A stretch of 64,000 nt of DNA from a virus. Taxonomy: Duplodnaviria > Caudoviricetes. This document shows, one piece after another, positions 26,400-60,335 of the stretch; position 1 is the stretch's first letter; the number at the start of each line of letters is the position of its first letter. The stretch lies in IMG/VR virus record IMGVR_UViG_3300021091_000011. One strand, written 5' to 3'. The notes below the pieces were generated by a model that was not told the DNA's origin, ran no database searches, and was given only the letters and a program-made list of their open reading frames with translations. A program made the translations under genes and the position numbers.

Positions 26400-27056
26400 A
26401 TGAACAAGATTTCTTCTCAAGACCGAAGCGCGCTGATTAAATTAGCCGCAAGTCTGCCGCTCGGCTCTGCCGAGCGCAGGGTGATCCTCGCCGGAATCGG
26501 ATACCGTTGGCTACCCGAGAACATTCGCGGGACATCGCCAAATGTCCCTTCTGAAAACACGGACCTCGAAATCTGGACCTATGAAGTCGCCGGAAAGCCC
26601 TACGCCATCGCGTATCAGGGCAAGTCTAGCAAGCCGCTGTTTTACTCGTTGTTCCGAAGTGAAGAACAACGCCGGAACACGATTCAAAATGCAATCAATA
26701 GCCGCAAGTCGGCTATTGAAAGCAAAGCGTTGCGACGCAAAGAGCGTAGTGAGTATCAGCACACGCTCAAAGTGGGCGACATCCTCTACTCTAGTTGGGG
26801 ATACGACCAAACCAACGTCGACTTCTACGAAGTCGTAGGCGTCAGCGGCAAAGCCGTCGCCATTCGTGAGATCGAACAGCGCGTGGTCGAAGGCAATGAC
26901 TTTACAGAGAGGGTCGCCCCCATGCCGCGAAAGTATATCGGCCCCGTGCTAAAGAAAATCCCGCGCGATAACTTCGTGCGCCTGAATAGTTTTTCAATTG
27001 CTCGGCTTTGGGACGGCAAGCCGAAGACGCAATCCGGCCCATACGGAGGCCACTAA
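26400..27056 (+). CDS. DRSALIKLA-leader protein with a SWGYDQTNVDFY-type domain
   Basis: N-terminal MNKISSQDRSALIKLA; C-terminal GDILYSSWGYDQTNVDFYEV, a motif recalled from phage/plasmid hypothetical proteins. Confidence 0.75.
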   Translation: MNKISSQDRSALIKLAASLPLGSAERRVILAGIGYRWLPENIRGTSPNVPSENTDLEIWTYEVAGKPYAIAYQGKSSKPLFYSLFRSEEQRRNTIQNAINSRKSAIESKALRRKERSEYQHTLKVGDILYSSWGYDQTNVDFYEVVGVSGKAVAIREIEQRVVEGNDFTERVAPMPRKYIGPVLKKIPRDNFVRLNSFSIARLWDGKPKTQSGPYGGH

Positions 27057-27105
27057 GTCCTTTTACTTAGCCTATCACGCCAACCGTAGGCAGGAGACCG
27101 ATTAC

Positions 27106-27483
27106 ATGAACAAGATTTCTTCGCAAGACCGAAGCGCGCTGATCAAGTTGGCATCAAGTCTGCCCGCAGGCGACGAAACCCGTCGCGCGATTCTCGCAGG
27201 CTTGACCAAACTCGCCGCCCCCTACAAGCACGACAGCACCACCAGCGGTGGTAAGCGTTGCCGCAATCAATCCTGCGGCGGCGTCGGCGCACCGGGCAAA
27301 GGTTTATCCGAGTACGACCTGCTCGCAAACTACGGCGATCACGTCGGCACCGACCACGATCCCCAAAAGAATATGGCGGGCTATATGCGTTGGTGGCGTG
27401 AAAACCAAGGTCAACACAAAGACCGCACCGTGAGCCCCACGGGTGCAGGCAACGAGACTTTCAATCCTCAAAAGAAGAAGTAA
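27106..27483 (+). CDS. DRSALIKLA-leader protein, unknown cargo
   Basis: AGGAG RBS; ATG 27106; same leader as 26400. Confidence 0.75.
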   Translation: MNKISSQDRSALIKLASSLPAGDETRRAILAGLTKLAAPYKHDSTTSGGKRCRNQSCGGVGAPGKGLSEYDLLANYGDHVGTDHDPQKNMAGYMRWWRENQGQHKDRTVSPTGAGNETFNPQKKK

Positions 27484-27508
27484 GTAAGTCTCCCCCCCTA
27501 GCCCTTAG

Positions 27509-27544
27509 AAAAGCCCTCTCGCTCGCGCAAGAGGGGCTTTTTTT
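27509..27544. terminator. Intrinsic terminator (bidirectional-looking)
   Basis: AAAAGCCCTCT...AGAGGGGCTTTTTTT. Confidence 0.85.
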
Positions 27545-27570
27545 ATGCCCAAAAAGCGTATGATCACGCT

Positions 27571-27660
27571 ATGCCTAGCAACACCGTCAGACTGATTCTC
27601 GGCGATAGCCTTGTCAAACTCAAAGATTTCTTAATCCGGCTATACCAATCTAACGCTTAG
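27571..27660 (+). pseudogene. Truncated copy of the MTase 5' end
   Basis: MPSNTVRLILGDSLVKLKD is identical to the 29110 start, then diverges at 27626. Confidence 0.85.
27632..27645 (+). promoter_or_regulatory. Representative of the TAA-NNN-SSCTATM motif (putative late promoter)
   Basis: Also at 16358-16371 (minus), 26342-26355, 52009-52022 and 57912-57925, with variants at 18897 and 27064. All lie 28-54 nt upstream of a start. Confidence 0.55.
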
Positions 27661-27682
27661 ATTATCTTGAAGGTGTATAGAC

Positions 27683-28798
27683 ATGAGCATGATTTCGCGG
27701 GTTGCGCAGAGATTCTTGCAGGCAGACGCAGTCAAAATTCATTGGTGGTTTCTTGACGCGCATGAGGACCCGACCGTCAAACGTGCCGCAGAACGGCTAT
27801 GGGGTTCCGTCGGTTCCGGGCTGGCTGAGATTGCCCCCATAAATGCGAGACTGCGGGCAATGAAACCCGAGGACGCGCACACGCCCAACGGTTTTCAGAC
27901 GGTGCGCGCCGACGTGAGTCTCGTTACAAGTCCGCAAGTAGAGGGCGTCGCTTTGCACTTGGATTTTTCTTTGGACGGCCGGACGGTCCTGTTCAACTCC
28001 AAGTTGAGAGTCAATCACCCGAAGTTTGCGGCTTTGCATGGTAAGAAAGCAACGCCGGCCAAGATTCTGTCAATTCTCTTTGCGGACTTCACGCAAAAGA
28101 AAGCCGAGTCCAATGCGTTTCAAGACGAACTCGACGCGGAATATGCACGGGTTCGGGCAAACTTTCAGACGCAAGCCGAGGACTTCGCCAAGTTTCTAGC
28201 CTTCCAGATTCCCACACTTCGGTCCAACGTCCCGGCGATTACCGGGAGTGTCAAGTCCGTCACGGCTTCCGAGAATGGCTTTTCGGTCGTGTCGGAGTTC
28301 AAGACCGCCACGGGCAAGCCTTATCAGATAGGGTGTGACGTCCGAAACGGAACGTTGCAAATCACACGTTCTGACGGTAAGCCCGGGTCTAAGTTCTCGA
28401 TAGACTCCGGGGACACACGTTCAGTCGGCAACGCCGTCCATCATGTTTTGAGTGTGGCCCGTGGCATTGCCAGTAGTGAGAGTCAGGCGTCGGACAAGGT
28501 GACGGCTCTGATTCAAGCCACGCGGACGGAAAAGGGCGGGCGAAACCGTAAGGTTTCGTTTATTCCTGGGAAGACCCCGCGTTGGGACGTTCGACCGGAC
28601 ACGCCGAAGTCTTTGGACCATTACGGTCCTGACGGTTGGGACGAAGACGCGTGGACGGAAGAATACGCGGAGCCGATTGAGACGGCGGTGCTCGCCGAGT
28701 TAGACGCCGCTTTTGGACGCGGTATGTTCCACATCGACGTAGAAGAGAACGGTGATTTCACCGTTTACGCGACTCCGGCTGGTGCCCGACTGTTCTAG
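27683..28798 (+). CDS. Hypothetical protein with SRVAQRF leader (putative virion-associated)
   Basis: Long ORF; TAATCCGGCTATAC upstream; MSMISRVAQRFL start. Confidence 0.75.
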   Translation: MSMISRVAQRFLQADAVKIHWWFLDAHEDPTVKRAAERLWGSVGSGLAEIAPINARLRAMKPEDAHTPNGFQTVRADVSLVTSPQVEGVALHLDFSLDGRTVLFNSKLRVNHPKFAALHGKKATPAKILSILFADFTQKKAESNAFQDELDAEYARVRANFQTQAEDFAKFLAFQIPTLRSNVPAITGSVKSVTASENGFSVVSEFKTATGKPYQIGCDVRNGTLQITRSDGKPGSKFSIDSGDTRSVGNAVHHVLSVARGIASSESQASDKVTALIQATRTEKGGRNRKVSFIPGKTPRWDVRPDTPKSLDHYGPDGWDEDAWTEEYAEPIETAVLAELDAAFGRGMFHIDVEENGDFTVYATPAGARLF

Positions 28799-29046
28799 TC
28801 GACGAGCTTCTTGACGAGAGCCTCGATGCGGGCCGACAAATGGGTCCGCACGATTTCGTCCGTGGCCTTACGTCCCGAATCAAGAAATCCGTCGGGAGTA
28901 TTTGAGACGAATCGAACGTCTTAATAACGCTCAGGCGGCGAGCGAGGCGGTCAAAAAAGACCGCACCGTGAGCCCCACGGGTGCAGGCAACGAGACTTTC
29001 AATCCTCAAAAGAAGAAGTAAGTAAGTCTCCCCCCCTAGCCCTTAG

Positions 29047-29083: not shown

Positions 29084-29109
29084 ATGCCCAAAAAGCGTAT
29101 GATCACGCT

Positions 29110-39587: not shown

Positions 39588-40670
39588 ATGAACATGAACG
39601 CGATCCCCAACGAAGTGCTCGAAGCGTGGCAGAACCGCCCGATCAAGACCCGCCGCCCCGCCCCCCGACTCGTCGATCTCACCGTTGAGATTGGCGACGT
39701 CGAAGTGCCCGTCGATACGGGCATCACGGCGAGCGATTGCTTGCCTATGCCCGAAGGCTACAAGTTCCCCACTAAGGGTGCGGCCAAGAAGTGTACCGAG
39801 CGCGCAATCCACGCGCTCGTGAAGGGCCGAAACGCCTTCATTCACGGGATGCCGGGCACGGGCAAGGACGCAATCGTCCACGCCTTCAGCGCCATGACCC
39901 GCAAGCCCGTGCTCATGGTCACTTTCCGGCCCGGGACCGATCTCGCACCTTGGTTCTATATGCGGTCATACACGGCGGGCGAAACCGGATGGCGCTACGG
40001 CGCACTCTGGAACGCACTCACCGAGGGCGTTATGGGCACCGACGGTAAGCCCCGCGCACCGCTGATCCTGCTCTCCGACGTTGACCGCGCCGATAGCGCG
40101 CAAGCAGAGTGGTTCCGAATCTTGACGGACAGCATTTCGGGCCGGATTCTCGGACCCGATGGACGCATGGTGCCGATCTTCCCCGGTACGCAGTTTGTCT
40201 GCACCGCCAACTCCTGCGGCACGGGCGATAGCCGTGGCCGCATGACCAGCGCAAACCCCATCGACGCCTCCATCATGGACCGCTTGGGCCGCGCAATCGA
40301 GTTCACCTACCTGCATTGGGACGACGAGGTTCAGGTCCTCCGCGAGAAGTTCCCGCTTCTCGTCGAAAAGGCCCCCGACGTGTTCACGCAGTTGCAGGGG
40401 TGCTGCGAGGCACTTCGCAAGGCAATCAAGAACGAGGAAATCTACGGCGAGTTCACGCACCGTGGCATCTGCGACGTGCTGGCCGAAGCCCAAGACCGAC
40501 TCGAAATTACGGGCAAGAGCGACAAACTGCTTCAAACAGGCTTCATGGCTTGGCTCCACCGACTCGACGCCGATAACCGACTCGCCGCAAAGCGACTCAT
40601 CGACCCCTTTATGAAGGGTGGCGCAATCGCCGACGACATTGGTGAGGCCGAATCCACCGAATCCCCCTAA
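39588..40670 (+). CDS. MoxR/CobS-like AAA+ ATPase
   Basis: Walker A GMPGTGKD, FVCTANS, IDASIMDRL. The Walker B position reads LLSDVDR. Confidence 0.85.
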   Translation: MNMNAIPNEVLEAWQNRPIKTRRPAPRLVDLTVEIGDVEVPVDTGITASDCLPMPEGYKFPTKGAAKKCTERAIHALVKGRNAFIHGMPGTGKDAIVHAFSAMTRKPVLMVTFRPGTDLAPWFYMRSYTAGETGWRYGALWNALTEGVMGTDGKPRAPLILLSDVDRADSAQAEWFRILTDSISGRILGPDGRMVPIFPGTQFVCTANSCGTGDSRGRMTSANPIDASIMDRLGRAIEFTYLHWDDEVQVLREKFPLLVEKAPDVFTQLQGCCEALRKAIKNEEIYGEFTHRGICDVLAEAQDRLEITGKSDKLLQTGFMAWLHRLDADNRLAAKRLIDPFMKGGAIADDIGEAESTESP

Positions 40671-41734: not shown

Positions 41735-42292
41735 ATGAGCCTTAGTATCTCACTTAACTCTAGTGCTGCGAAGTCCGGTATCTCTGGACCGCTTTGGTTT
41801 GCGTTTAGTCGAGAATTCGGCTTGGCTTTGGCTTCATGGTTGAACGCGAGTGCCTACGGCTATTCGCCTCTTGGTATTGCGCCTCCGGCTCCGTCTCCGA
41901 TTTCAGTAACGGGCTCGGGTCGATTGCAGACGTTTCGTGTGAGGTCACCTTCTGGCGTCAGTTCGGGACCTTTGGGCGTGAACACGGAGCGTGCGATTCT
42001 GGATGCGTTGGTTTTCGTGCCAATGGTTTTGAAGCCTCTAGGTTCTGGTTCGGGCTCTGGTGTGAGTCCTATATTGCCTTCGGGTAGTTTCCGTTCGAGT
42101 CTTGGTCCGTTGGGTGGTTATCTGGTCGCGCGTGTGGGGACGTTATCTGGTCCTGTTGGCAAGTCTTGGCTTTTGGATTTCGGTACTCGTCTGGAATCAG
42201 GTATGTCGTTTGTGGGTACTGCGACGGTGATTTCTCAAGTGCCTGTCCCCGTCCCCGTGATCGTATCTGTGGGGGTGATATGTCCTTTGTGA
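41735..42292 (+). CDS. Putative virion protein (S/G/V/P-rich)
   Basis: Overlaps the start of the giant ORF; similar composition. Confidence 0.55.
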   Translation: MSLSISLNSSAAKSGISGPLWFAFSREFGLALASWLNASAYGYSPLGIAPPAPSPISVTGSGRLQTFRVRSPSGVSSGPLGVNTERAILDALVFVPMVLKPLGSGSGSGVSPILPSGSFRSSLGPLGGYLVARVGTLSGPVGKSWLLDFGTRLESGMSFVGTATVISQVPVPVPVIVSVGVICPL

Positions 42293-48200: not shown

Positions 48201-51200
48201 TGGTGTCGGCCCCGCGCGCCAACGTGATTTCTTGCTTGTGCAGACCGGACAATCGCCTATTGGAATCACGGGCATTCAGTCGATTGGCTCGGTGAGTGCT
48301 GACTCGGTTGAACCCCCTCGATTCGTCACGAACACGCAACGCGGCGACTTGCATAGGTACACGGCTCAGAATCTCTTTGGGCACAAAGGCGGCGGCACGA
48401 CGGGCCTTCGCATTACCGAAGTCGGCTTCGCACGTCTATTCGACTTTTCGGATGTCGCAGGCATCGTACTCGATGACGGCTTGGGCGCAGGCAACGGTGG
48501 TCTGGACGCGCTGATTAATCTTGGCGTATCGCCAGGCAACGTGCTCGTCATCAACGTCTATAACCCAAGTCCGTTGGCCGTAAACGCCTACTTGGGCAGC
48601 GTGGTGATACCGAGCACGGTTTTGGCGGCGGTGATTTACTACAAGCCCGCTGTCGGTGTGGCCGTATCGACAAATCTCACGCCTCCGGGCTGGACGCTGC
48701 TGAACTCGACGCAGTTGCAAATCAACGCCGTGGCGTCCGTCTTGAGCACGCTTGGCTTGGTTTCGGGCCAAGCCTACGACTTCACGCTTACAGTTGATAC
48801 CTACGTCGATACGACGACGAGCAATCTGACGAGCGGTGCGTTGGCCGTCGGCTCCGCATTAGGTTCGACCTCCTGTTCGATTCGTGTGAATCGACTTACT
48901 TTCGACGAGCGCGTGTCGTTTGCCTCGGCTTTGCCGCGAAACACGAACCCCGCGAACGGCGACGGCTCAATCGAAATGGGCCTCGCGCTCAATGTTTTCG
49001 AGAGTCCGGTCGGCGCGGGCGCGGTAATCTCGACGGTCAACAACGCCTCCGAAATCAACGGCGGGCTTTATCTGACTTTTCTAGCACGCACTTACGGCGT
49101 CGGCACTTTCACGGCGGCGACATTGCCCGCAACCGAAATCGGTTCCGTGCGCGCGATGGCGTGGGAAGGTCACGGCAATACGCCGATCACGGCGACGAAT
49201 CTGGTCGTATCTGCGGTGCCCTCGTCCGAACGTGATGCCGCTGGCGTCATTTGCGACGGCTCCGGCGTCATTCTCGATGCGGTCGCGCCCTACGCGACCG
49301 AGAACGTGACGTGGTTGCAAACGCTGGCCGTCGCTAACGGTGCAGTAGCGAACGTCGAATCTGGCGACGTCGCTATCGTCAACGGCGGGCTAATCACGGG
49401 CGCGGTGAAAACAGGCACTTACTTGGTGCGTCACGCGGTCACCGAAACTGCTTTCGGCCTGCGACCGATTAAGAACTCGACGCTGGCGGGCAGCAAAACC
49501 TGTTTCGACCTTCGATTCCCAACCGTCGTGAGCATTTCGGGCGTCCTGAGTCTTACAGTAGGCAACGTGCAGCCTGTTTTGTATTCCCCGACGGGCTGCG
49601 GTTTCCCATCATCCGGCTTCGTCTACGTCATCCGAAATGACGTGTGGGTGACTTGGTCTGCGGGCGTTTACACGCTCAACGCCGAGGCGGTCTACAAACT
49701 CGGCTACTCGGCGGTCGCTTACAACGCTGCGACTAAGACGGCGGTTTTCACGCTGACGGGCTTGAGACTAAAAGCCGATGGTTCACCCATCACGCCGTCT
49801 GAACTCGCGTTGGGCGTTACTGCAAACCTGAAAGTGTCCGGTTTCAAGTATCTGCCCATCGGACGCTTGGCCGATGATTTGCCGGACAATAATCTGGTGG
49901 GCTTCGGTTCGGCTGGCGGCATCGCGGGCGTCACTAACGTCACCATCGGCACGCAGGCGATTGCGGGTGCTCCGGTGGCGTCATTCACTTGGAACACGGC
50001 TTCGGTCCCCGCATTGGTTCAAGACCTCTCGGGCGCGGGTCCGGCTGCGAATCAATTGGCCGTGCGCGTTCCGACGCCGAATGACTCCACGGCGTTCTAT
50101 GCCGACACGAACGCGGTGATTTACGGTCGCGTCGATAACGGCGTGAACCCCGTCACAGGCGTCGCTTCGCATCTGGACCTGACGACGATTGATTGGGACA
50201 CGGTGCATTTCAATCCCGTGTTTGCCCCGACCGTCCTGCAATGCTTATTGCCCGGCGATGAAGTCGCGTTCTCGGACAGCATCAGTCCGCTTGCGAATCC
50301 CGGATTTTCGGCGGTCGCGGGCATCTTCTTAGAGCCTTCGATACCTAAGCCCGTCGGTGACTTGAACAGTCTCGACCCCCATGTGGTCACGGCTTCGCAC
50401 ACGACGCTCGACGTGGGTATCCGCAAGTACGGTGATTTCGTCGCGCTCGGCACGCAAGAAACCGTGCAGTTTGCCATTCGCCGCATTCGTCGCTTCCATG
50501 ACGTGCAAACGAACCTCTCGGCAATCATCGACCCCTTGCGATTCGTCTACGAGACTCGTCGCGGGCCTATCGCCGTCCCTATTGCTACGCCGACTGTTAA
50601 CGTCACTTTCGCGGACGGCACGACGCTCGGCTTTTTTGACGACCCCGATGTGGCCGTAAAGCCAAGTTGCACGCTGCGGGTACTAAACGCTGCGGGTGAT
50701 GTTCTCGATACGGCTGAAATCAGGGCGGTGCTCAGTTCAACATCGTTGCTTTTGCGCGAACCCGGACTAACGCAAGACCTGACCTCTGCTGCGTCCTTCG
50801 AGATTTACCTCGTCGATGCGCCCGTGCCCCATGAGCAATCATGCGCGCAGTTGCTAGACGCACTTGTTGACCCGAATGGCGGCGGCTCGATTGTTTATAA
50901 GCGCACGGTGGACTACTCGACCTACCCCTTCGGAAATGGCGGCTCGGTCATTACTGCGAATGAGTTGCTAGATGCGGGCTTGGCTACGCTCACGTCTAGC
51001 GAGTTGGTGCTTCAAGACGACTATGTGATTGTCGATCCCGCAGGGGCTTTGTTCGCGGCGGGCGAGACGGGCCTATTCCCGAACGGTGACACTTCTGTAT
51101 CGGGACGTGTGCCCTTTGTCGCGGGGCGTCCGTCGAAGTTGGACGACAATCGCGGCTTTTATCGCGTCACGGCGAATCAAACGTCCGGCGATAACAAACT

Positions 51201-52011
51201 TGTGGTCTCGGGCACCACGCAATTCAGCGGCTCGGATGAACTCGGCGGCGACGACGTGATCTACGGCGACGTGGGCGCTGAATACGCGGTGCTGCCGACG
51301 ATTAGCGGGTCATTGGTTTCGCAAGGCCCGACCGAAGGCCAGCAAACTCTTCGCGTCACGGCTTCGGCTGACGGCACGGGTGCTTTCTTAGGTCGTGTTG
51401 GCGACGCGCAGTATCGCTCGCTTGAGCCTTTCGGCTTCACGGTGATTCGGCCTGCCCGCACGGTGTTTTCGTCGAACGAATCCATCGAGACCACGTTGTT
51501 CATGCGCGAACGTATGTTGAGCCTGATTCAATACATGGCTTCGGCTTATGGGCGAGGCGGGACGTATTACGTTTTCCAGCGTGACGATCAAATCGAGAAC
51601 CTGCCTAACCCATCTGACGTACTCGTGGGTCAAGGCGTGTTCACGAACGCCATTGTAGACTTACTTCGCGGTCTGACTAACTACGCGCCGTTTGCGAACA
51701 ACCCAATCTGCCTGTCGGTGCATGACCGAAGGCTTTGGATCAAAGATTTCGCGTTGGATTATGAAAGCCCGAACGGTGTCGCGCCTTTCTATGCGGCTCT
51801 TAGCACGAACGGACTGAATCAGAGGCCCATTTTGACGGATTTCATCGACGATGTGCTTGACAACGTCGATGATTTGCATGGCGCGCGTTACGCTTGGCTT
51901 GAATATCGCACGAATCAGGTAAATGGGACCATCGTGAGCGCGAGTCGTTCGAAAGAAAGAATCAATCAAGTTAGGGTGAAACAGGCGAACGCGATTCGAC
52001 GTAGCCGCTAA
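42280..52011 (+). CDS. Giant (about 3240 aa) putative tail/baseplate structural protein
   Basis: Uninterrupted 9.7-kb ORF, beta-rich G/S/T/V/A composition, no enzyme motifs seen. GGGGGTGAT RBS before ATG 42280. Confidence 0.65.
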   Translation: MSFVISGSGDLSGAVVCVPSIWIRLGDPWTRVCPQPANAVNLFASAAVNNSNSAVTLTPRAVDLYHWVESGVEVRNVGAIKPSGNVIPSGFAVGDQLPDYFLLGLGGVSVDCELVSNNPGGLTPNRAYLNINNGEFYLGAGLILETLQYGLDTVQSLVVGGDNKARVWVNTLRVGLGLVLSDCIYGVLNCRLVISDSDLPLPAGISPTEFYLSLASGLCVFSSVYISGRVLKILGVGVSSNPVPNVRHVVLNANGRGQVPAADSLTLWPSNLAGWSRGPITAVGDRPSAWGVVTENSGELFIVGKRDLLAIVEYDSDLPTQGYGLNRERGYYSLESGALQVRSGVGNEVVDFKCGLVPVGFEAPVGVVSLVGLLRGPFDLSGETFVFALDGVVTSFTLPIGRYTSGQLAVLLNAASGVPNAWFDLAGGLACVANASIEIGWGDARIGFAQGWIVTSGARWNSYNGLAMGLYRQVGEGDLTVRLYGEVDDEILVEKIGESSLVYLGQGFPDALQSGYEPDGFFEIVGSNGLISQPLSGRPTAGVFTSSWGVGLLLDCVERNRFSWVERFETGSISVDNGVDQITLDGLGVISLTLEVQEPNLPWLPQEYVLVGNTALFSSRIGADLLSGGVGESVSGVFTDVTIADFTVANVNVGDLLVTSDNLVYRIISVAAGALGLYPSDSFGLVGWQVLDTEPVGLAVYDPALIADRQFLQLPTWDGGDPFAIRVITPLSGATANLSKPYAKSLRYGAVDAGNSALDLLVRGVSMGALSSQMQMPAFVLSDPHYTTSTAGGFYFSLRVPTAVIVITSAFTVPSPPLGVIEVGLFGSGISGQVRVASNLVTAYADLLVYYDQEFLPAGVIVNAEGDIATGALNIPTAYAGESLFLVEKYTSDSVTVSPVPGTAFFQTPIEPRQYVEATYYPTNSGGVNKTGDLIVEFMPISIRLEEATRINARLYSFNPSGLAYDSASEPMIWVGAEMQNYSGNLTATVNGALSQIAFTYDVPITSKVQITYSVLNAPLGTASQSYQVTQAPVWQPPFWLNAGQSVFVLEGDRTATVAPDHLIGVGGKYVAYVQGVTLLPSGDTQVEIYPAPVREVGSRSPGVDQGLVITDRNVTDVDFIQVVPNAFLGAGVGASLIQFYGDARSIIAPRHLIDLDGVPYLVQNVQLTSDGRKTVAYLQIPLQRDVAEGSVVKCSFRPIYQNQPIDFTISGTQITGTSFTAILFSSDSSIPGKVLVPNTQYVVENGALKFQTQFQTPLQPNERLYASYTKSKVISPTMIDDALVVPKYRATYLAITQPSDANGLLGGVLKGKYFYLDAESFTLKIQPIADYLPIVLLDAARRPENPDDTATPTPFPQGGAVTVQKQAENARNAYWDALNLDAGGRVFVTLFNNAVTPFEQVLETIDGRVIGDRDGKLRLYVGPESVTPIAGGVYALTSHLYPRVVWRDLLEAWSPNTSGWFFMPDDFIYDPRSITLGVNPGSLNGYPPSGPDLDFFIDLQREYQRNDVDDVLMTSFKRNVTLANTLLPVITFKGRFESAWQPNAFSRLYPEQTRYFTRLLPGLEAQIDANTGEVIDAGFYSAGRLLPVAGTQPGTTVNKVVKTRNTVIGQISNPVLGELKNVSDITANDRGPRARVWAYYPNGNAALDAALALATPTVGRATLVLTPQTINDFVIDQITGFPDTSLLVTNGGANPDVNSGDAELSTPEFASGDQILLGNPDGTVRTVYLPASGLGAAENPVFVDDIQAGCVVFLKDLNNSALSGAQIFMSDPISGGGISFDPTQGDTIFTPTSQAAIAPNLVSDPVSLADAAKLIETNGDYRIQNDLKVRRRTGQILDASLPVVEDIWGLPIQDWAGQNPPLPGSCIEGTADIINADSEPARLPALFGGTRDDSGDNQIPFLALGNTEIRLLQQASRLFDGLFLDSAAPVQAVYPDEIAVSDGVIYGAVTGGLEPATLYTATANFTPVFVAGSGVGPARQRDFLLVQTGQSPIGITGIQSIGSVSADSVEPPRFVTNTQRGDLHRYTAQNLFGHKGGGTTGLRITEVGFARLFDFSDVAGIVLDDGLGAGNGGLDALINLGVSPGNVLVINVYNPSPLAVNAYLGSVVIPSTVLAAVIYYKPAVGVAVSTNLTPPGWTLLNSTQLQINAVASVLSTLGLVSGQAYDFTLTVDTYVDTTTSNLTSGALAVGSALGSTSCSIRVNRLTFDERVSFASALPRNTNPANGDGSIEMGLALNVFESPVGAGAVISTVNNASEINGGLYLTFLARTYGVGTFTAATLPATEIGSVRAMAWEGHGNTPITATNLVVSAVPSSERDAAGVICDGSGVILDAVAPYATENVTWLQTLAVANGAVANVESGDVAIVNGGLITGAVKTGTYLVRHAVTETAFGLRPIKNSTLAGSKTCFDLRFPTVVSISGVLSLTVGNVQPVLYSPTGCGFPSSGFVYVIRNDVWVTWSAGVYTLNAEAVYKLGYSAVAYNAATKTAVFTLTGLRLKADGSPITPSELALGVTANLKVSGFKYLPIGRLADDLPDNNLVGFGSAGGIAGVTNVTIGTQAIAGAPVASFTWNTASVPALVQDLSGAGPAANQLAVRVPTPNDSTAFYADTNAVIYGRVDNGVNPVTGVASHLDLTTIDWDTVHFNPVFAPTVLQCLLPGDEVAFSDSISPLANPGFSAVAGIFLEPSIPKPVGDLNSLDPHVVTASHTTLDVGIRKYGDFVALGTQETVQFAIRRIRRFHDVQTNLSAIIDPLRFVYETRRGPIAVPIATPTVNVTFADGTTLGFFDDPDVAVKPSCTLRVLNAAGDVLDTAEIRAVLSSTSLLLREPGLTQDLTSAASFEIYLVDAPVPHEQSCAQLLDALVDPNGGGSIVYKRTVDYSTYPFGNGGSVITANELLDAGLATLTSSELVLQDDYVIVDPAGALFAAGETGLFPNGDTSVSGRVPFVAGRPSKLDDNRGFYRVTANQTSGDNKLVVSGTTQFSGSDELGGDDVIYGDVGAEYAVLPTISGSLVSQGPTEGQQTLRVTASADGTGAFLGRVGDAQYRSLEPFGFTVIRPARTVFSSNESIETTLFMRERMLSLIQYMASAYGRGGTYYVFQRDDQIENLPNPSDVLVGQGVFTNAIVDLLRGLTNYAPFANNPICLSVHDRRLWIKDFALDYESPNGVAPFYAALSTNGLNQRPILTDFIDDVLDNVDDLHGARYAWLEYRTNQVNGTIVSASRSKERINQVRVKQANAIRRSR

Positions 52012-52059: not shown

Positions 52060-55000
52060 ATGCCTGAAAGTTTTGGGAACGGCGTATCTCGCACTCTGAG
52101 TGCGCTAAATCGTCAGTTTCAAGCGGTCACTTGGCAGGCTAACAAGCCTCCGCTGGACTCCGAACTCAACCTGATGGCGCAAGTCGAGTGGGAGCGACTT
52201 GGCAATCTCGTTCGCTCGCAGACGCATAGCGGGTTTTTCATTGACCCCATGCAAGCGACGGCTGATTTCGTCACCAGCGCCGATTACTCGAACTTCTTTC
52301 GACTCGGCAACGTCCCCATTGGCTTTCAAGCCCCCGCAATGTGGGCTAACGTCAACGGTTGGGTTATTCCTGTCACGGGCGTTGCTTACAATGGCGTCAC
52401 CAATCAGGTGAATCTCTGGCCCCCTCCGGCGAGCGATGCCCGAATCGACTTCGTGTTCTTGGAAGCCTGGCTTACTTTGGTCGCGCCGAATCCGAGCACG
52501 GCGAATAAGCCTTCGGCCTCCACGATTTACAAGTACGGCAACACGCAATACGGCGGCACGAACGTCGCTGACGACATCGAAGATCCCGCGATTGGCTTTG
52601 AGACGACCGAGCGCGTGCAATTGCAGTATCGCATTCGCGTATTCGGCCAAGGCACGGGCTTGGGCAATAGCGTTGCGCTGAACGTCTATCCCGATGGTCT
52701 TGATGACCCTTCCGTGAAGGCTCAGGGCACCGCCGCTGCTCCTTTGCCTGCGTACTCGTGGGCGAATATGCGTGACGTGCTCGGCGATGCGGGCTTGTGG
52801 CGCGCAGGCGATGGTGACCCCGAAAACGCTTTGGGCACGCTCGACGGCTACGTTTACGCGATCCCGATTTGCGCGGTCTTTCGTCGCAATACCAGCCCTT
52901 TTATCGCGCAACAGCCTGCGGGTAACGCAAATCAAAACGGCGCTTTCGACCGCAACCCATACTCGGCACCCATTACAGACCCCGCTGAAGCCGTCCGCAC
53001 GTTCACTTCAGTCACGTTGACTTCGAGCCTGTCTGCTACGGCTTCGGGCGTGGTGAGCGTAACGAGCTTGGCGAATTCCGGCTTGGACAACCCCGATTTG
53101 TATTCGGGCGGCTCGGTTTTCTACCTGCTCGACGGCGAGGTTGTAGAAATCAGCGGCGTCGGCGCAGGCACGATCACGATTGCGTCGCGTGGGCGTTTGG
53201 GTACTCAGGCCGTCCCGCATGACGCGGCGACCGCCCTACGGTTCTATTGCTTCCGCGCAGACGGCTTGTTCTCAGATCAGATTGCGGCGAGTGACATTCT
53301 TGACCTTCGCCGTTCGATTACGCTTGGCGAGTGGGACTACAACCAAATCCTGCTGCACAATCTCGGGCAGTTGTTCGCCAACAGGCTGCGGTCTAGTTAC
53401 AAGCAGTCCGGCGCGGCTGATACCGAGGGCACGGTCGTCCCCGAGGTTTCATACCTGCCTACCACGAGCCTTTCGCCTGTGCCGAATCAAACCGAACAGG
53501 TGGATTCGCCCGATGGGATTCGTGAGGTGTTCTCGGACGCCGTGGTGATTCAAGACAATGTGACCGTCATGCTTTTGCCTGACTCAAGCGGTGGGCCGGG
53601 CGCTCCGGTCGCGGTGCCTGATTTCACGTCGGGTGCGCCGACTTGGGAAACGGCTGCGGATTTCCAGCCGAACGGTTGGCAACCTTCGGGCGAGGGCATT
53701 CAGAACGGCACGGTCATCAATCTTTTCATCGGCGGTGCTTCGGGCAACGACGGTGCGCGCAAGTCCATGGGCGGTGTGCGAGCCGTTCGTTTCGCTACGC
53801 CCAAAGAAATGTGGCTCCAAGGCGCGGAGAGCAAGACGCCGTTCAAGTTGCGCTTCGTTGGTTCTACGACGGCGTCAAATGACGGCTTGTTCTGCGAGCC
53901 CCCGGTCACGGGCGAATTGGTTGGCGAACATCCTGGCCCGATGTACCCGCTTCCTCAGTTGAACTTCGAGTATCCGTTCATCGTTCTCGGTGGCGTGGTC
54001 GAAACGTCACTTCGCAATACGTCGGCAACCGTCGTGAGCGCGGCGACTACGGGTGACTACGCCGAGGTGCAATTCCCTGGTCTGAATTTCACGGCGGGCG
54101 GCGCATGGGTGAATTCGACTGATCCGCTTAATCCTGCTTTGGTCACCAATCCGATTCTTTACGGCAAGCGCACGCTCTACGATATGATTACGAAGGGCGG
54201 CACGGATATCACGGGCCGTTCATCTGAACTCTATCTGGTCCTGTCCGGCGATACGACGAACTCCGAAAACTGCGGTGTGTTCCGCGTCATCGGCGCGGGT
54301 GATGTTGCTTCCCAATACACTTCGGTTACGGGCACGGCAGTAAACTCGCTCGTCGTAGAAGGCGTGCAAGCGGGATGGACGGATTTCGTTGACGCGGCCA
54401 ATCTGACCGCCGAAGTACGTTCGCAATACTCGAATACCGAGGACGGCCCGAACGCTTCCGTGGGCAACGCTGCGGCGGCAGTTGTCGTAATGACCGATCT
54501 CGCGGGCACGTTGGGCGGTGTTTCTAACCCATGGCGTGCTGCTACGCTTGGCGCAAACGCCATGACGTTCCCAAATGCGAGCGCGGCGATTCTCGACACG
54601 AGCCTGATTTATGGCTCTGGACGTGGCGCAATGCCCCGCGTACCGGACACAATTGACCGCTTCGCCGTCGTCAACCCCATTTCTTCAACCTACTTGCTTC
54701 GTCGCGCGGTGGGCACGATTGACCCCGCTGCGGGCTCTGCTGACGTGCCCACGAACGAGATTTACTATCCCGCTCAGGGCGTGCAAACGTGGTCGGGACT
54801 TTCAGACCATGGCCTCAACGCTCCCGAAGGTCAATCGCTCCCGCTCGGCAATGGGCGTGGCGCTTTGTCGGAGCAGTTGCGTGAGGGCGAACTTTTCGCC
54901 GATGCGGGTTCTAAGACGCTCGTGATTCGGCCTTACCGCAAGGTCAACCTGTCGGTGAATCTGCGTGATGTGAACGTGGACGGCGGCGGCACGCTTGTAC

Positions 55001-57369
55001 CGACGACTTATGCTGCGGGCGCAGGCGCAGGCAATTCGGTTGACGATGCGGGCATCTTCGACGCGGGCTTGAAAAAGGGTTACAGCCTGCCCCCCGAGTA
55101 TATGCCTCGATTCGGGCGGCAGGATATCCCCGTCTACAAATACGCGGCGACGGACGTTATCGCGGCGCTGCCCTATTACTTCGGCGTCAATCACCTGTTC
55201 GCTGATTCGGTCACGAACACCGACGCCGTGTTTAATCTCATCGGTGGCACGGATAACGGTGGCGCTGCGGACGTCACGTCTATCTTGTTTCAGACGAGCG
55301 TAGCTTCGGGCTTGGACTATGGCGAGTACGGCCCGATTGTGGGCGGCAACAACGCCTATCAGTCGCGGCTCTACACCGATATCAACGTCCGCGCTTCGGA
55401 CTTGCCTCCGGGCTTGAAGGGCATTCAGTTGCCCCCATTCTTGGGCATCGCACGCATTTACGGCGTGTACGATGCCCGCGAATGGGCGGGCTCTGGTGCG
55501 TGGCAGGCTGATCGCGTGACGCCGGAAACGGGCGGCACGCCTCCCAAGAACTTGATCCGCACGGATGCCGATAAGCAGACGTTGTTCATTGTTCAAGGCG
55601 GCGCAATCGACGTTACGCTGAACGAAAACGATCACACTTACGTCATCCCCGAAAACCTGATCGACATTCGGCTCTCGGGCTCTTTCGTCGCGGGCGAGAC
55701 GTTTGACGATCTGGATTACATTGTCGAGTGCGAAGTGTTTGGCTTCGCACGAGGCTTCATCAACCTCAATAACTACGTCCTAGCCCGAAAGCACAACGGC
55801 GCAGGAGCCGCGCCTTCTGGACTCGCGCAGGATATCGGCATGGTCTTGCCTTTGCCCTTGCCTGCGAATAGTTGCTATGCGGCTTACCATCGCACCGTCT
55901 ATCAAGGCGACCCATACATGACGCGGGGCGCAGCCGCTCAGGTCGTTTCTGACTATGAGCCGCGCTTCGGACAAATCTCCGTCGCCAACGCCTATCAACT
56001 CGTCACCGCGATTCAACAGTTCGACGCTAACGGCGATCAAGTGCCGGAAATCCCGAACGCGCGTGGGCTTGAGATTCTGGCCGCTGCTGATTTTTATACG
56101 ACGCTCGGCACGGGCAAAATCGGCGGCGCTTTGCAATCCGGCACGGCGACTGACATTGGGCATTTAGAGTCCAACGGCACGCGCTTGCCGACATCGGCCA
56201 CCGCCAATCAGTTTCAGCCGCAAGCCCGCACGTTCACCGAAGGCCAGCCCGAATCCGCGCCTCGTGGTTCGCTCGTAATCCGCGTGCTTTTGGCTTCGGC
56301 GGCTTCGGCTAATCAGTCGATCTATTTCTATCAGGGTGCGAAGTATCAATACGCACAATCAAATGCTAGTTTCTCCGGCCTGACGACTTCTGCTACGGCT
56401 GAAGACTTGGCTGACTTTATCAACAGTCAGGTCAATCCTTACGTCCCCGTCAAAGCCTATTGGAATGGCGGTAACGACGTTTTGGTTCAGGCGGTCAATT
56501 CCGGCGTGAGTGATATTAGAATCGACCTGCGGCCTGCGGGTACGAATCGTGACGTCACGGGTTTCGCTCTGATCGCACCTACGGGTTATGCACCTGCATC
56601 GACCTCGCGCTATTTACTCGGCGGTCAGGACATTCCAGTAAACGCGGCGCGTGTAAGCGACGCGCCAACGCCGATTGCAATAACGGGCCTTACGGAACGC
56701 TTGCCTTTGGGCATCCTGCTCAATGACTCGGACTTCATTGGTGAGGACCCCGCGCGCACGGGTTCTTCGATGCTTCACGTCGCGCCTTCGGCGGGTGGGC
56801 CTGCTGGCAACGTCAAGGTGCCCGAAGTGCGCGGTGCCGAATACGACCGCCTAAGCGGACCTGCGGGGCATCTCGGCATGGCCGATGGCGGCGTGTTGCT
56901 TTATACGGCTTGGACGACGGTGACGCCTACGGGTAGCCGACTCTTCCGCGTCTATCGCGGCGGCACGGCTTACGTCATCGGCGGTCAAAATCCGGGTGGT
57001 CCGGTCGATTGGACTTCCGGCAATCTGCCCGACGGCTCCGTGTTGAAAGGCTGTGTGCTCGCAGGTCGAGCCTATCTCGTCCGTAACTACGAAGAATCAG
57101 CCTTCGGCAACGTGACGACGCACGGTGACGAAATCCAAATGGTCATCGTCACTCGCGGCATCGTCGGCGAAAGTTTGAACTGCGAAAACGGCTACGCCCT
57201 TGTCGGACAGATTAGCCCGACGGGTTACGGCGAAGGCTATTCGGCGGCTGACCGATATAGGCTTGAAGGCAAGCCCTTACACGCAGGCACGAGCAAGAAC
57301 GGCCCGAATCCTGTTGTCCCCTTGGCTCCGTATCCTACGGACGACCCGCAACCCTCGACGCCATGCTGA
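52060..57369 (+). CDS. Large (1769 aa) putative tail/baseplate or fibre protein
   Basis: Follows the giant ORF; N-terminal PPLDSELNLM; similar composition. Confidence 0.65.
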   Translation: MPESFGNGVSRTLSALNRQFQAVTWQANKPPLDSELNLMAQVEWERLGNLVRSQTHSGFFIDPMQATADFVTSADYSNFFRLGNVPIGFQAPAMWANVNGWVIPVTGVAYNGVTNQVNLWPPPASDARIDFVFLEAWLTLVAPNPSTANKPSASTIYKYGNTQYGGTNVADDIEDPAIGFETTERVQLQYRIRVFGQGTGLGNSVALNVYPDGLDDPSVKAQGTAAAPLPAYSWANMRDVLGDAGLWRAGDGDPENALGTLDGYVYAIPICAVFRRNTSPFIAQQPAGNANQNGAFDRNPYSAPITDPAEAVRTFTSVTLTSSLSATASGVVSVTSLANSGLDNPDLYSGGSVFYLLDGEVVEISGVGAGTITIASRGRLGTQAVPHDAATALRFYCFRADGLFSDQIAASDILDLRRSITLGEWDYNQILLHNLGQLFANRLRSSYKQSGAADTEGTVVPEVSYLPTTSLSPVPNQTEQVDSPDGIREVFSDAVVIQDNVTVMLLPDSSGGPGAPVAVPDFTSGAPTWETAADFQPNGWQPSGEGIQNGTVINLFIGGASGNDGARKSMGGVRAVRFATPKEMWLQGAESKTPFKLRFVGSTTASNDGLFCEPPVTGELVGEHPGPMYPLPQLNFEYPFIVLGGVVETSLRNTSATVVSAATTGDYAEVQFPGLNFTAGGAWVNSTDPLNPALVTNPILYGKRTLYDMITKGGTDITGRSSELYLVLSGDTTNSENCGVFRVIGAGDVASQYTSVTGTAVNSLVVEGVQAGWTDFVDAANLTAEVRSQYSNTEDGPNASVGNAAAAVVVMTDLAGTLGGVSNPWRAATLGANAMTFPNASAAILDTSLIYGSGRGAMPRVPDTIDRFAVVNPISSTYLLRRAVGTIDPAAGSADVPTNEIYYPAQGVQTWSGLSDHGLNAPEGQSLPLGNGRGALSEQLREGELFADAGSKTLVIRPYRKVNLSVNLRDVNVDGGGTLVPTTYAAGAGAGNSVDDAGIFDAGLKKGYSLPPEYMPRFGRQDIPVYKYAATDVIAALPYYFGVNHLFADSVTNTDAVFNLIGGTDNGGAADVTSILFQTSVASGLDYGEYGPIVGGNNAYQSRLYTDINVRASDLPPGLKGIQLPPFLGIARIYGVYDAREWAGSGAWQADRVTPETGGTPPKNLIRTDADKQTLFIVQGGAIDVTLNENDHTYVIPENLIDIRLSGSFVAGETFDDLDYIVECEVFGFARGFINLNNYVLARKHNGAGAAPSGLAQDIGMVLPLPLPANSCYAAYHRTVYQGDPYMTRGAAAQVVSDYEPRFGQISVANAYQLVTAIQQFDANGDQVPEIPNARGLEILAAADFYTTLGTGKIGGALQSGTATDIGHLESNGTRLPTSATANQFQPQARTFTEGQPESAPRGSLVIRVLLASAASANQSIYFYQGAKYQYAQSNASFSGLTTSATAEDLADFINSQVNPYVPVKAYWNGGNDVLVQAVNSGVSDIRIDLRPAGTNRDVTGFALIAPTGYAPASTSRYLLGGQDIPVNAARVSDAPTPIAITGLTERLPLGILLNDSDFIGEDPARTGSSMLHVAPSAGGPAGNVKVPEVRGAEYDRLSGPAGHLGMADGGVLLYTAWTTVTPTGSRLFRVYRGGTAYVIGGQNPGGPVDWTSGNLPDGSVLKGCVLAGRAYLVRNYEESAFGNVTTHGDEIQMVIVTRGIVGESLNCENGYALVGQISPTGYGEGYSAADRYRLEGKPLHAGTSKNGPNPVVPLAPYPTDDPQPSTPC

Positions 57370-57380: not shown

Positions 57381-57914
57381 ATGAACAAGCCGTCACCTAT
57401 CCGTGTAGCAAGTCGCTATCTAAACGCCAGCCTCACGCTCGCCTTCGTCGGCAACGTCGGGGCCAAGAGCACTAAGATTCAGGACATTGGCGAAAAGGCC
57501 GCTGATGAACTCAAAGCGTTAGTCGGTGAAGCCGAAGCCGAAGCCTTGATTCGCAACAAGTTGGCTCGGGACAAAGGCTTTTTCTTCCACGTCACGATTA
57601 TTTCACCGCCCGAAGTGAAAGATATCGTGAACCGAATGGCCGCAGATAAAGCCATGAGCAAGTCCAAGGCATCGGACGAGTTCAAGGCCGAAGTCGAAGC
57701 GTTCGGCCTTACGGATAGCGGCTTGAAGTCACTCGGCTTGGGCAAGGCCGAGAAGGGCAGCGACGTGGCTTATTTCGCCGTTCTCGATTGGCCCGACGCT
57801 CAAAAACTGCGCGCCAAGTTCGGCTTGAGTGATTTCGATTTCCACACGACGATTGGTTTTGTTAAGGCCGACGTTCACGGCGTTCGCAAGAATCGATCTA
57901 CTCTGATTCGCTAA
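57381..57914 (+). CDS. 2H phosphoesterase (two HxT motifs)
   Basis: FFHVTIISPPE and DFHTTIGF..DVH; N-terminal IRVASRYL. Confidence 0.8.
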   Translation: MNKPSPIRVASRYLNASLTLAFVGNVGAKSTKIQDIGEKAADELKALVGEAEAEALIRNKLARDKGFFFHVTIISPPEVKDIVNRMAADKAMSKSKASDEFKAEVEAFGLTDSGLKSLGLGKAEKGSDVAYFAVLDWPDAQKLRAKFGLSDFDFHTTIGFVKADVHGVRKNRSTLIR

Positions 57915-57957
57915 CACGGCTATCGCCGTGTGATTGTTACACGACAGGGGACTTTCG

Positions 57958-58542
57958 ATGCGTAAGTTGAGTTCTGCTGATCGTTCGGCCCTGATCAAGT
58001 TGGCTTCCAGTCTTCCGTCTGGTTCGCCCGAGAGAAAGGCGATTCTCGCCGGACTTCAGGGTTCAAGCAAGAAGGCTTCTGGTGATGTTAACATTTCGGG
58101 TAAGCACATCACCGCTGCAGGGTACACCTACACGCCGAACGAGCTTCCGGTCTCGGAGATCAACCCCTCCAAGATCCCCAGTCGAACGGCCCGAGAGTAC
58201 CAAAAGCGACTCCTCGTCGATCTCAAGAGGAAGTTCCCCTACAATGAGATCCGGCTTGACATGTTGGGGTTCATCACAGGCTCCCCCTTCACCTATATCA
58301 AGTTCAACGGTCTCGGGACCCGCCTGGACCTCGGGATGTGGTTCGACCAGAAGCCCCAGGACGTCTGGGTGCTCAGGCTCCACATTTCGTGGGGAAGCCA
58401 CTACGAAAGCGGGAACTACAAGGCCATCGACATTCCTTGGGCTGGCGACCTCGACGCGATCTACGCAAAGGTCAAGAAGGCGTCAGTCACCCTCGTCGAG
58501 TTGGGGCTCTCGAAGATCGAGGAGGCCAAGGCCAGGCCATAA
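57958..58542 (+). CDS. DRSALIKLA-leader protein, unknown cargo
   Basis: MRKLSSADRSALIKLASSLPSGSPERKAILAGL; ATG 57958. Confidence 0.75.
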   Translation: MRKLSSADRSALIKLASSLPSGSPERKAILAGLQGSSKKASGDVNISGKHITAAGYTYTPNELPVSEINPSKIPSRTAREYQKRLLVDLKRKFPYNEIRLDMLGFITGSPFTYIKFNGLGTRLDLGMWFDQKPQDVWVLRLHISWGSHYESGNYKAIDIPWAGDLDAIYAKVKKASVTLVELGLSKIEEAKARP

Positions 58543-58671
58543 CCCAGGAGTACCTGATTGCCCTTCTACGGAATTAGAGCATGAAGCCTCATAAGGTTCC
58601 GTAGCGGATATTGGTGAAAAACCCGATTGTCGGGTCATCCAACGGAAACTCCAGAATGGAACAGGAACACC

Positions 58672-59601
58672 GTGAAAAATAAGTCGATAGTGCTCGTTAC
58701 TCTGACGCTCGCCTGCTCGCATCCGGTCGCCCGCGACGAGCCCGCGCCTCTCCTCAACCCGTCTGCCGCGCCGCCCCCGACGCTGCGGACGCTCAAGATT
58801 ACTTCCGAATGTGCGGACCCCATCTGGATTCAACAGGAGAACCACGCGGGTGCTCCTGCGCTCACGAAACTGACCAAGGGCACGTCAACTTCATTTAGTA
58901 TCCCCGACGAAGGCTTGCCGTCTACGCGCTACTGGGCAAAGACGGGCTGCGACGCCACCGGAAATAGCTGCGCGGTTGGACAGTCCTCGCCGCCTTGCCC
59001 CGCTGCTGGATGCGCTCCTCCGGTGGACAGCAAGTTGGAGGCAACGTGGGGCTGCACGCTGCCAGAGGCGCAAAAGGAGCAATGCGCCAAGACGGATCAA
59101 GGACCACACGTCAAGAATACATGGTGGAACGCGAGTGCCGTTGACGGCTTCACGCTGCCCTTCCTCGTTGCGGTCAGCGGCGCATCCTCAGACGCCTGTG
59201 CGCCTGTCAACTGCGCCATGCTGGACCAGAACAAGTGTCCCGCGTCGGAATCCCTGCCGCCCGCCTACCCAGGTGGGGTGGATCTGCGTGTGCAGGGCGG
59301 TGCGGGGTGCTTCTCGCCATGCACGGCGCTCACCTATCCCGGCTTTGGCGGTAAAGGCATCCAACCGCCGAGCGACCCTCGCGCTGCCGCGTACTGCTGC
59401 CCGACGCCGCCTGTGTCGCCCGCACAATGCTCTAGTGGCCCTGCGGCGACGACGAAATACGTCGAGGCTATCCACAAAATGTGCGCGGACACGACCTACG
59501 GCTATGCCTATGACGACGCGCTAGGTCTGCGTCAATGCGACCCAACAGTTGAACTTCAGCTTATTTTCTGTCCCGGTATTCCGGCAGTAGCGACGCCGTG
59601 A
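58672..59601 (+). CDS. Thaumatin-like (PR-5/GH64-TLP superfamily) lipoprotein
   Basis: Lipobox TLAC; RYWAKTGC, NASAVDGFTLP, GCFSPC, YCC, YGYAYDD and LIFCP, with many Cys. Confidence 0.85.
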   Translation: MKNKSIVLVTLTLACSHPVARDEPAPLLNPSAAPPPTLRTLKITSECADPIWIQQENHAGAPALTKLTKGTSTSFSIPDEGLPSTRYWAKTGCDATGNSCAVGQSSPPCPAAGCAPPVDSKLEATWGCTLPEAQKEQCAKTDQGPHVKNTWWNASAVDGFTLPFLVAVSGASSDACAPVNCAMLDQNKCPASESLPPAYPGGVDLRVQGGAGCFSPCTALTYPGFGGKGIQPPSDPRAAAYCCPTPPVSPAQCSSGPAATTKYVEAIHKMCADTTYGYAYDDALGLRQCDPTVELQLIFCPGIPAVATP

Positions 59602-59750
59602 TGCGCGGCGACGCCGAGGTGTCCGGCAAAGCCAAATGCTTCGGCAACGCCCGCATCGGTGGCACGGCTATTATCCTCGGTGGCGAATGGAACGGAAGCG
59701 AGGGTGAGGTCACTTCAGGTACTTGGCTGGCTCCGGGCGTTCCGGGCTGA
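59601..59750 (+). pseudogene. 49-aa remnant resembling the end of a hexapeptide (LbH) repeat protein
   Basis: MRGDAEVSGKAKCFGNARIGG... carries GDAxVSGxAxxxGNAxI periodicity. Confidence 0.45.
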
Positions 59751-59792
59751 TTCCCTAGTTTTGACGACGCCTAACAAGAAGGTTTGACCCCC

Positions 59793-60335
59793 ATGCGTAA
59801 GTTGAGTTCAAGCGACCGTTCGGCCCTGATTCGGCTTGCTTATGCCCGACCTGATCTTCGTCCCGCTCTTCTGCCCCTCTTGAAGAAGGCGAGTAACTTC
59901 CCCCGCGTCGTGAAGGAAGTCGAAGAGGACTACAAGCGCAAGGCAATAACGGTCAGAGAAAAGAACGAACTACTCGCCGCCATTGAGGACGCGGAGACTG
60001 AAGAACAAGCCATGGGGTTAGTAAGGAACCACCGTAAGGGGCGTGTTGCAAAAGAGGCTTCCGCATCCCCGTCTAACCCGCGCATCGTGCGGTTGCGCGA
60101 TGGGAAGTTCGGCATCGAGTTCCACACCAACCGAGGCGTGTTCGTCTGGACGCAGAACAAGAGTTTCACCCACTCATTCAAACTCGACCGCGAAGATGAC
60201 CGAGATCGTTCTCCTTTGACTTACGATTCACCTACTGCGGCGCAATCGGGTATGAAAGAGGCTCTTTACGAAATCTATCGTTACCGACCAGGTGATGAAG
60301 ACTTCGTGCGTGGGCACGAACCCGTGAAAGTTTAG
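59793..60335 (+). CDS. DRSALIRLA-leader protein, unknown cargo
   Basis: MRKLSSSDRSALIRLA...LLKKAS; internal KEAS. Confidence 0.75.
   Translation: MRKLSSSDRSALIRLAYARPDLRPALLPLLKKASNFPRVVKEVEEDYKRKAITVREKNELLAAIEDAETEEQAMGLVRNHRKGRVAKEASASPSNPRIVRLRDGKFGIEFHTNRGVFVWTQNKSFTHSFKLDREDDRDRSPLTYDSPTAAQSGMKEALYEIYRYRPGDEDFVRGHEPVKV

Follow-up and report, generated by a model that had tools for sequence, protein, structure and literature searches.

The stretch of DNA analysed here (64,000 nucleotides, referred to below as the window) comes from a huge phage that has not been cultivated, and it holds four open reading frames (ORFs) on the forward strand, at 26400, 27106, 57958 and 59793, that start with MNKISSQDRSALIKLA or MRKLSS[AS]DRSALI[KR]LA. 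An earlier note, made from the letters of this DNA alone, had taken the shared start as an N-terminal leader that would address unrelated proteins to the capsid. We describe it below as a module that occurs in two sequence variants, and the proteins that carry it are called A to D:

26400..27056, forward strand: tagged protein A, 218 aa, variant-1 module at residues ~5-33 (26400-26498)
27106..27483, forward strand: tagged protein B, 125 aa, variant-1 module at 27106-27204, followed by TKLAA
57958..58542, forward strand: tagged protein C, 194 aa, variant-1 module at 57958-58056, followed by KKAS
59793..60335, forward strand: tagged protein D, 180 aa, variant-2 module DRSALIRLAYARPDLRPALLPLLKKAS at 59793-59894

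A six-frame regular-expression scan and a hidden Markov model (HMM) scan, each taken alone, recovered these four copies and no others from the window; the HMM gave them E-values of 5e-18, 7e-18, 5e-15 and 1e-4, and nothing else scored better than E ~0.7. The starts of C (57958) and D (59793) are identical in the public gene calls for independent contigs of the same phage (from lake samples: JGI sample 3300020179; Logan runs SRR7990717 and SRR7990527). The leader continues with SLPxGxxxRxxILAG in A, B and C and with ARPDLRPALLPLLKKAS in D, which represents the second variant. Past residue 36 an all-vs-all BLASTP found no similarity among A-D (E > 4), and no family was matched by the cargo of B, the cargo being the part of a tagged protein outside the module. 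A K-x-A-[SA] motif lies behind the leader in B (TKLAA), C (KKAS) and D (KKAS). The earlier note had described all of these features, namely four ORFs with a common N-terminal leader, three of them continuing with SLPxGxxxRxxILAG, remainders unrelated past about residue 33 and a K-x-A-[SA] site behind three of the leaders, and each of them was found again.

The second variant reads xLRSKLIRLAHxNPxLRPxLLPLLKEA. It is the dominant form in LR745208, a 485-kb uncultured phage in which ~10 ORFs start M.TLRSKLIRLAHxNPxLRPxLLPLLKEA. A variant-2 profile matched D alone in the window (E 2.5e-14) and gave nothing significant against G001, a 297-kb IMG/VR contig. Since variant 1 is present in A-C and the variant-2 profile matches D, the phage of the window uses both variants.

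A profile of the four leaders was then searched against 1.84 billion protein representatives, where it matched 1,411 metagenome-derived protein clusters at E ≤ 1e-3 and 255 at E ≤ 1e-10. In IMG/VR it located 23 loci on viral contigs whose length reaches 297 kb; five such contigs hold 6-22 matches each, and a separate scan of G001 gave 24 modules within 18 open frames. The scan of the window and of related phages suggested in the earlier note thus yields four copies in the window and 6-24 per related huge-phage contig. The module has the consensus SSDRSALIRLASSLPxGSxERRAILAGL-KK-[TA][AS], also given as SSDRSALIRLASSLPKGSPERRAILAGLKK, then [TA][AS][AS], and is a basic helix-turn-helix module of ~30 residues with R/K among its conserved positions. 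In the AlphaFold2 model of protein A (mean pLDDT 93) the module forms two helices (H6-18 and H24-33 by DSSP), and the model of protein P0013 (pLDDT 62) contains the helix-turn-helix hairpin three times. Among the 150 best representatives we counted 226 modules, 135 of them N-terminal, 64 internal and 27 C-terminal, and therefore the earlier description as an N-terminal leader only is too narrow. Two or three copies were found in 62 of the 150 proteins. P0011 is an 87-aa protein that consists of two modules only, P0022 carries tandem modules, and in P0001 and P0003 the modules are separated by long K/E-rich linkers. It may be noted that one family of core proteins of 700-900 aa (P0008, P0013 and P0039) has modules at the N-terminus, the centre and the C-terminus. 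Its loci lie at 189.6-191.9 kb in contig G003, 20.7-23.0 kb in G004 and 36.3-38.9 kb in G005. The central module in this family is followed by CEKLPxGPMRDNCE, a HQFTSEDNPNPKGNDKDGDGKTNEP segment is conserved, and a ParB-like domain is inserted in some members. For P0013 no PDB match was found by Foldseek at E ≤ 0.001 with the model of pLDDT 62, and no family was matched either.

Database searches did not place the module in any known family. In Pfam, no helix-hairpin-helix (HhH) or other DNA-binding family matched the window proteins at E ≤ 1 or any of 32 modules at E ≤ 10, and no family of another kind matched these modules consistently at the latter limit. NCBIfam gave no match to the module, and neither variant's profile had a significant match among PDB sequences, the best hits (E 0.066 and 1.6) being unrelated proteins. 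The identity with a known stand-alone DNA-binding domain that the earlier note had considered was hence not found in Pfam, NCBIfam or PDB. When cultured and deposited phages were searched by tblastn with the 37-aa leader, no match was returned. Genome contigs scanned with a very narrow module pattern also gave no match, from which absence in cellular genomes does not follow. As far as the literature could be searched, the module is undescribed. Judged from these sequence comparisons, the leader belongs to a large family of small portable domains, hitherto undescribed, and is not a mere N-terminal propeptide, and the module behaves as a small docking domain rather than as a propeptide of the T4 type.

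At the DNA level the leaders form two close pairs, A/B and C/D, and the first 45 nt are near-identical within each pair. Between leader copies the synonymous codon differences outnumber the non-synonymous ones (for B versus C, 33 codons: 10 identical, 15 synonymous and 8 non-synonymous), which argues for a peptide under selection and not for a DNA repeat or a recent duplication. One may suppose that the shared 5′ end has no function of its own and was only carried along when a repeated regulatory or 5′ cassette recombined, a view to which the near-identical 45 nt and a short upstream motif common to A and C would lend themselves. However, the peptide is kept through many synonymous changes and is conserved over the 1,411 clusters, also where the module is internal or C-terminal and a promoter plays no part, and this explanation is hardly credible. 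The upstream motif, TGATT[TG]TTACA, is exact upstream of 26400 (A) and 57958 (C) only, and the window holds 10 matches with ≤1 mismatch against 1.2 expected. The earlier statement that a putative late-promoter motif lies upstream of three tagged genes is thus upheld in part: the exact form precedes two of the genes only, and its late role is unsupported, as we found no link to structural genes and no tie to late expression. A promoter-like element that differs from this motif, CCGTTTGGATGGTGTAAGC or close variants, lies upstream of 24788 and 37468 (reverse strand) and of 39588 and 40761 (forward strand). A few bases upstream of it a TTTTCGGTTTTT-type word is seen at 24788 and 37468, and a shorter CGGTTTTCC at 39588.

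The proteins attached to the module are highly diverse. The 196 non-module segments of the 150 best representatives gave 109 unrelated BLAST clusters (87 singletons). Pfam matches among the tagged cargo are few (YdcK beta-solenoid, pentapeptide, GNAT, DUF2958 and Fusello_VP2-like), and a ParB-like DGHHR segment is present in one tagged multi-domain protein (P0020). The cargo of A (26532-27056) is phrog_37844, a widespread phage domain with >900 homologues, which include proteins of cultured Vibrio and Paraglaciecola phages annotated as hypothetical. In its model (pLDDT 93) a Tudor/SH3-like barrel comes after a beta-sheet that has a long helix. Foldseek gave no match for this cargo, and VIA-align gave weak Tudor/SH3-like and PH-like similarities (Z 5-6.6); the C-terminal Tudor domain of UvrD/PcrA resembles it weakly, at Z about 5.4. 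The best 120 of the >900 homologues were scored for what precedes this domain: variant 1 was found on 6, variant 2 or a close form on 10, a short N-terminal RVAxR[YFW][LMI] tag on 9 and almost no extension on 13, the remaining homologues having other short helical extensions. The same cargo with different tags in different phages is a direct sign of tag swapping. With the 109 cargo clusters, this upholds the earlier claim of a swappable tag on unrelated proteins, and we regard it as highly probable that the module is a portable docking tag.

The RVAxR[YFW][LMI] extension represents another terminal tag, V[AV]xR[YFW][LMI], which is much shorter than the module and alternates with it on orthologous cargo. 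Its two occurrences in long open frames of the window are both at the N-termini of real ORFs:

57381..57914, forward strand: 2H-SAK phosphoesterase, short N-terminal tag PIRVASRYL (57381-57440)
27683..28798, forward strand: 371-aa protein, family unassigned, N-terminal SRVAQRFL (27683-27720), directly downstream of A and B

Five of the nine occurrences in G001 are at protein termini (11563, 106220 and three C-termini), and one G001 copy is carried by a protein of 905 aa that has a CCA-adding-enzyme domain and whose gene lies 5 kb upstream of the head cassette.

A replacement of cargo can be followed in the second tagged locus. Residues 1-51 of C correspond to the leader and the start of a tagged beta-solenoid (LbH) protein (E 6e-19), after which an unrelated domain follows in C, and the other end of an LbH gene lies further downstream:

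58672..59601, forward strand: thaumatin-family gene, inside the disrupted leader-LbH gene
59586..59750, forward strand: LbH remnant, of which 59586-59744 encodes the last 53 residues of P0004 (tblastn E 5e-15); it appears as a 49-aa gene in the public gene calls

The thaumatin-family gene belongs to the inserted DNA. The 5′ end of the LbH gene is now the start of C and its 3′ end survives at 59586-59744, which marks a replacement just behind the tag: the cargo of C was exchanged there by recombination.

It may be asked if the module is a non-specific nucleic-acid-binding motif of the HhH type that tethers enzymes to DNA. The basic two-helix build with its LPxGS hairpin is loosely HhH-like, pairs or triplets occur in some proteins, and some of the cargo is DNA-related. 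Yet there is no HhH or DNA-binding match in Pfam and no significant PDB chain, and on orthologous cargo the module is replaced by the 7-residue RVAxRYL or by nothing, which suits an address better. We consider a nucleic-acid-binding motif improbable.

If the module is an address, the head of the phage is the destination to which several observations point indirectly. In LR745208 a head cassette on one strand consists of the genes for a maturation protease (phrog_18299), a scaffold-like protein (422 aa, acidic), a 134-aa tagged protein, a 228-aa protein and the major head protein (phrog_2522). The variant-2 module is N-terminal on the 134-aa protein, whose gene lies downstream of the protease, between the scaffold-like gene and the major head protein gene. 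The protease is present in all five IMG/VR contigs and has >1,191 homologues. In LR745208 its C-terminus is ...ARTLIRLASLLS, and its end, ...SSEARTLIRLASLLSAHKS, in which the helix reads LIRLASLL, is close to helix 1 of the module. The 120 best protease homologues keep a C-terminal amphipathic helix, L[ST]xAE[IL]RVVVR[VL]GTLL...NNP, which has the hydrophobic/Arg pattern of the module without a significant profile score. Homology between the protease tail and the module was considered and rejected as unproven, not being significant (≤5.2 bits). For the 88 of the 120 homologues in which the tail helix was located, 64 have [KR]-x-[AVS]-[SAG] within 16 residues upstream of it, against 12.6% of background windows, and the motif is mostly RKAA or KKAA. 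In the scaffold homologues, KKA[AS]LRPQPKRAS occurs close to the C-terminal end. A motif of this kind is also enriched about 8-11-fold at the borders of the modules:

K-x-A-[SAG] directly downstream of the module: observed 27%, background 2.4%
[KR]-x-[AS]-[SAG] downstream of the module: observed 41%, background 4.8%
[KR]-x-[AS]-[SAG] upstream of internal and C-terminal modules: observed 41%, background 4.8%

In other phages terminal tags bring proteins into the head. The prohead protease gp245 of SPN3US is carried into the prohead by a C-terminal tail, which is then removed (PMC7411985), and the same is given for the targeting tail of the HK97 gp4 protease (Duda et al. 2013, as cited in PMC9024508). 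The internal proteins and Alt of T4 and DarB of P1 are loaded through short N-terminal tags (PMC7411985, PMC9024508). The capsid is our best single guess for the destination of the tag, with about an even chance of being right, and it ranks above another hub, a network of mutually adhering modules and a nucleic-acid-binding motif.

Several points weigh against the capsid as destination. The border motif is absent from protein A (ORF 26400) and could be simply part of the domain. The tail of the LR745208 protease scores 5.2 bits against the module profile and the other 120 tails score ≤3 bits. Most tagged genes are distant from the head genes (in G001 the cassette of capsid, scaffold and protease genes spans 19.5-24.2 kb, with the major capsid protein gene at 23 kb, and the modules are at 105-287 kb), and the three-module core protein in G005 sits among replication genes. 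No characterised capsid-targeting sequence is known to occur internally or in several copies, as the module does. In addition, by the family-A DNA polymerase LR745208 is the sole close deposited relative, at only 48% identity, a blastn search of the locus found no DNA match among phage records, an exact 39-mer was found neither in IMG/VR nor in the JGI metagenome collection, and searches of phage records found no cultured relative of the phage of the window. A complex prediction for the G001 major capsid protein and the first 48 residues of a G001 tagged protein scored 0.00, which speaks neither for nor against binding.

The position of the genes would also fit a docking tag for a hub other than the capsid, for example a phage factory for replication or transcription, the shell of a compartment, or a host protein that many phage effectors have to reach. 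Besides the tagged genes outside head cassettes, which are the majority, the three-module protein of G005 is encoded between the genes of a ribonucleotide reductase and a RecD2-like helicase, the tagged genes of the window lie among DNA-metabolism genes, and some cargo is DNA-related (ParB-like, pentapeptide, Fusello_VP2-like). But no candidate hub was found, and such a hub would leave aside the tagged gene inside the protease-scaffold-capsid cassette of LR745208, the resemblance of the protease tail to the module and the border motif common to modules, protease tail and scaffold. We hold a hub of this kind to be rather unlikely.

Another explanation starts from the proteins with several modules. 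The module may be self-associating, a sticker, with the hairpins of different proteins pairing into four-helix bundles, and K/E-rich proteins with several modules would link clients that have a single module into a network or condensate, possibly the internal protein body of the capsid. The 62 of 150 proteins with two or three modules, some with long K/E-rich linkers, would be expected from this, as would P0011 with its two modules only and the tandem modules of P0022, and the core of a lone 30-aa hairpin is probably too small for stability. The models, on the other hand, show no confident packing of module against module, the internal and C-terminal modules of P0013 having a pLDDT of 42-66. 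We think self-association unlikely. In its extended form, for which we see a similarly small chance, multi-module K/E-rich proteins and three-module proteins would polymerise through module contacts into a sticker-and-spacer matrix, an internal protein body into which single-module clients of any fold would partition; the protease would enter it by means of its similar tail and, by cuts at the [KR]-x-A-[SAG] borders, would break it up later. If this were true, cargo would be loaded inside a virus head by a programmable matrix that resembles a condensate.

A large clade of uncultivated huge phages fuses the module to many unrelated proteins by recombination just behind the module. With the capsid as the destination, the pattern fits a scheme of tag, load and cut, every step of which is inferred. 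All module copies would bind one common partner in the assembling prohead, either the scaffold core or the inner capsid surface, and the tagged proteins would be encapsidated along with the prohead protease, which would cut off the tag at the flanking [KR]-x-A-[SAG] site. The cargo, such as beta-solenoid or pentapeptide DNA-mimic-like proteins, the ParB-like nuclease and GNAT, would be ejected into the host with the DNA. Multi-module proteins with K/E-rich linkers may serve as multivalent adaptors.

If this scheme is true, the clade spends 6-24 genes per sequenced contig on proteins injected with the DNA, and its arsenal is changed simply by recombining new genes behind a tag of 100 nt. A part of the 'dark' gene content of huge phages would thereby be explained, and a sequence rule would be available for candidate injected counter-defence proteins, with >1,400 clusters already tagged. 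Foreign proteins could also be loaded into phage capsids with a tag that is compact and independent of position. Even with another destination, a common 30-residue domain without a Pfam entry merits a family definition and a search for its partner.

The remainder of the window contains three intein-bearing genes of DNA metabolism:

6388-8931, reverse strand: RecA/UvsX-like protein with intein, LAGLIDADG domain
11597-15124, reverse strand: RecD2-like helicase with intein
60979-63990, reverse strand: family-A DNA polymerase with intein

Four DNA methyltransferase-like genes stand in a row at 451-4859 (reverse strand), comprising two full N6_N4_Mtase paralogues, one D12-class N-terminal fragment and one partial gene. 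Directly upstream of the second tagged locus are two giant ORFs on the forward strand, 42166-52011 (3,281 aa) and 52060-57369 (1,769 aa), for neither of which a PHROG family was matched. The first 2 kb of the 42166-52011 ORF show an extreme strand skew (GC skew +0.25, AT skew -0.37).

Among known systems, the capsid targeting sequence (CTS) of T4, present on IPI-III and Alt, offers a first comparison (Mullaney & Black 1996, as summarised in PMC7411985). In both cases a short peptide is common to otherwise unrelated proteins of one phage, a candidate protease site lies behind the tag, and the cargo plausibly consists of anti-defence proteins ejected with the DNA. However, the T4 CTS has ~10-20 residues, is strictly N-terminal and occurs on a handful of proteins, whereas the module is a two-helix unit of ~30 residues that is found at any position, in 1-3 copies and on 6-24 proteins per contig. 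No sequence relation between them is known, and packaging and cleavage of the module proteins is a prediction. In the case of P1 DarB, ~30 N-terminal residues are enough to bring a heterologous protein into a large phage's head, and the natural cargo is an anti-restriction enzyme (PMC9024508). That signal is described for DarB, in contrast to the multigene family of the module, and no similarity between the two is known. As regards prohead protease tails, the proteases of the clade also end in a conserved amphipathic helix after [RK]-K-A-[AS], but what the tail would do in this clade is deduced from its role elsewhere. The polyvalent proteins and MuF-fused effectors have ParB-like, methylase, peptidase and other domains, counter-defence functions that presumably enter the head and reach the host along with the DNA, and the term 'helical domain' is not mentioned there (Iyer et al. 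2017, PMC5512222). Their domains are joined in one giant polypeptide or fused to MuF, while here separate small tagged proteins are seen; the polyvalent architecture, with many effector domains and an embedded peptidase in one chain, is not seen in the window, whose tagged proteins have 125-218 aa and one cargo each.

In build, the module as modelled resembles the C-terminus of the P22 scaffolding protein, which is also a basic helix-turn-helix of ~30 residues, docks on the inner capsid surface and is used as a tag for loading foreign cargo into P22 shells. There it belongs to one scaffolding protein, whereas the module recurs on the products of many genes. Encapsulation peptides of encapsulins and bacterial microcompartments are short helical tags that occur at either terminus or between domains of diverse enzymes; the encapsulin shell has the HK97 fold, and multivalent scaffold proteins carry several peptide copies. 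They differ in serving cellular nanocompartments, in having other sequences and in the lack of removal by a protease. As a mechanism, the module would be a new variant of the known encapsidation tags.

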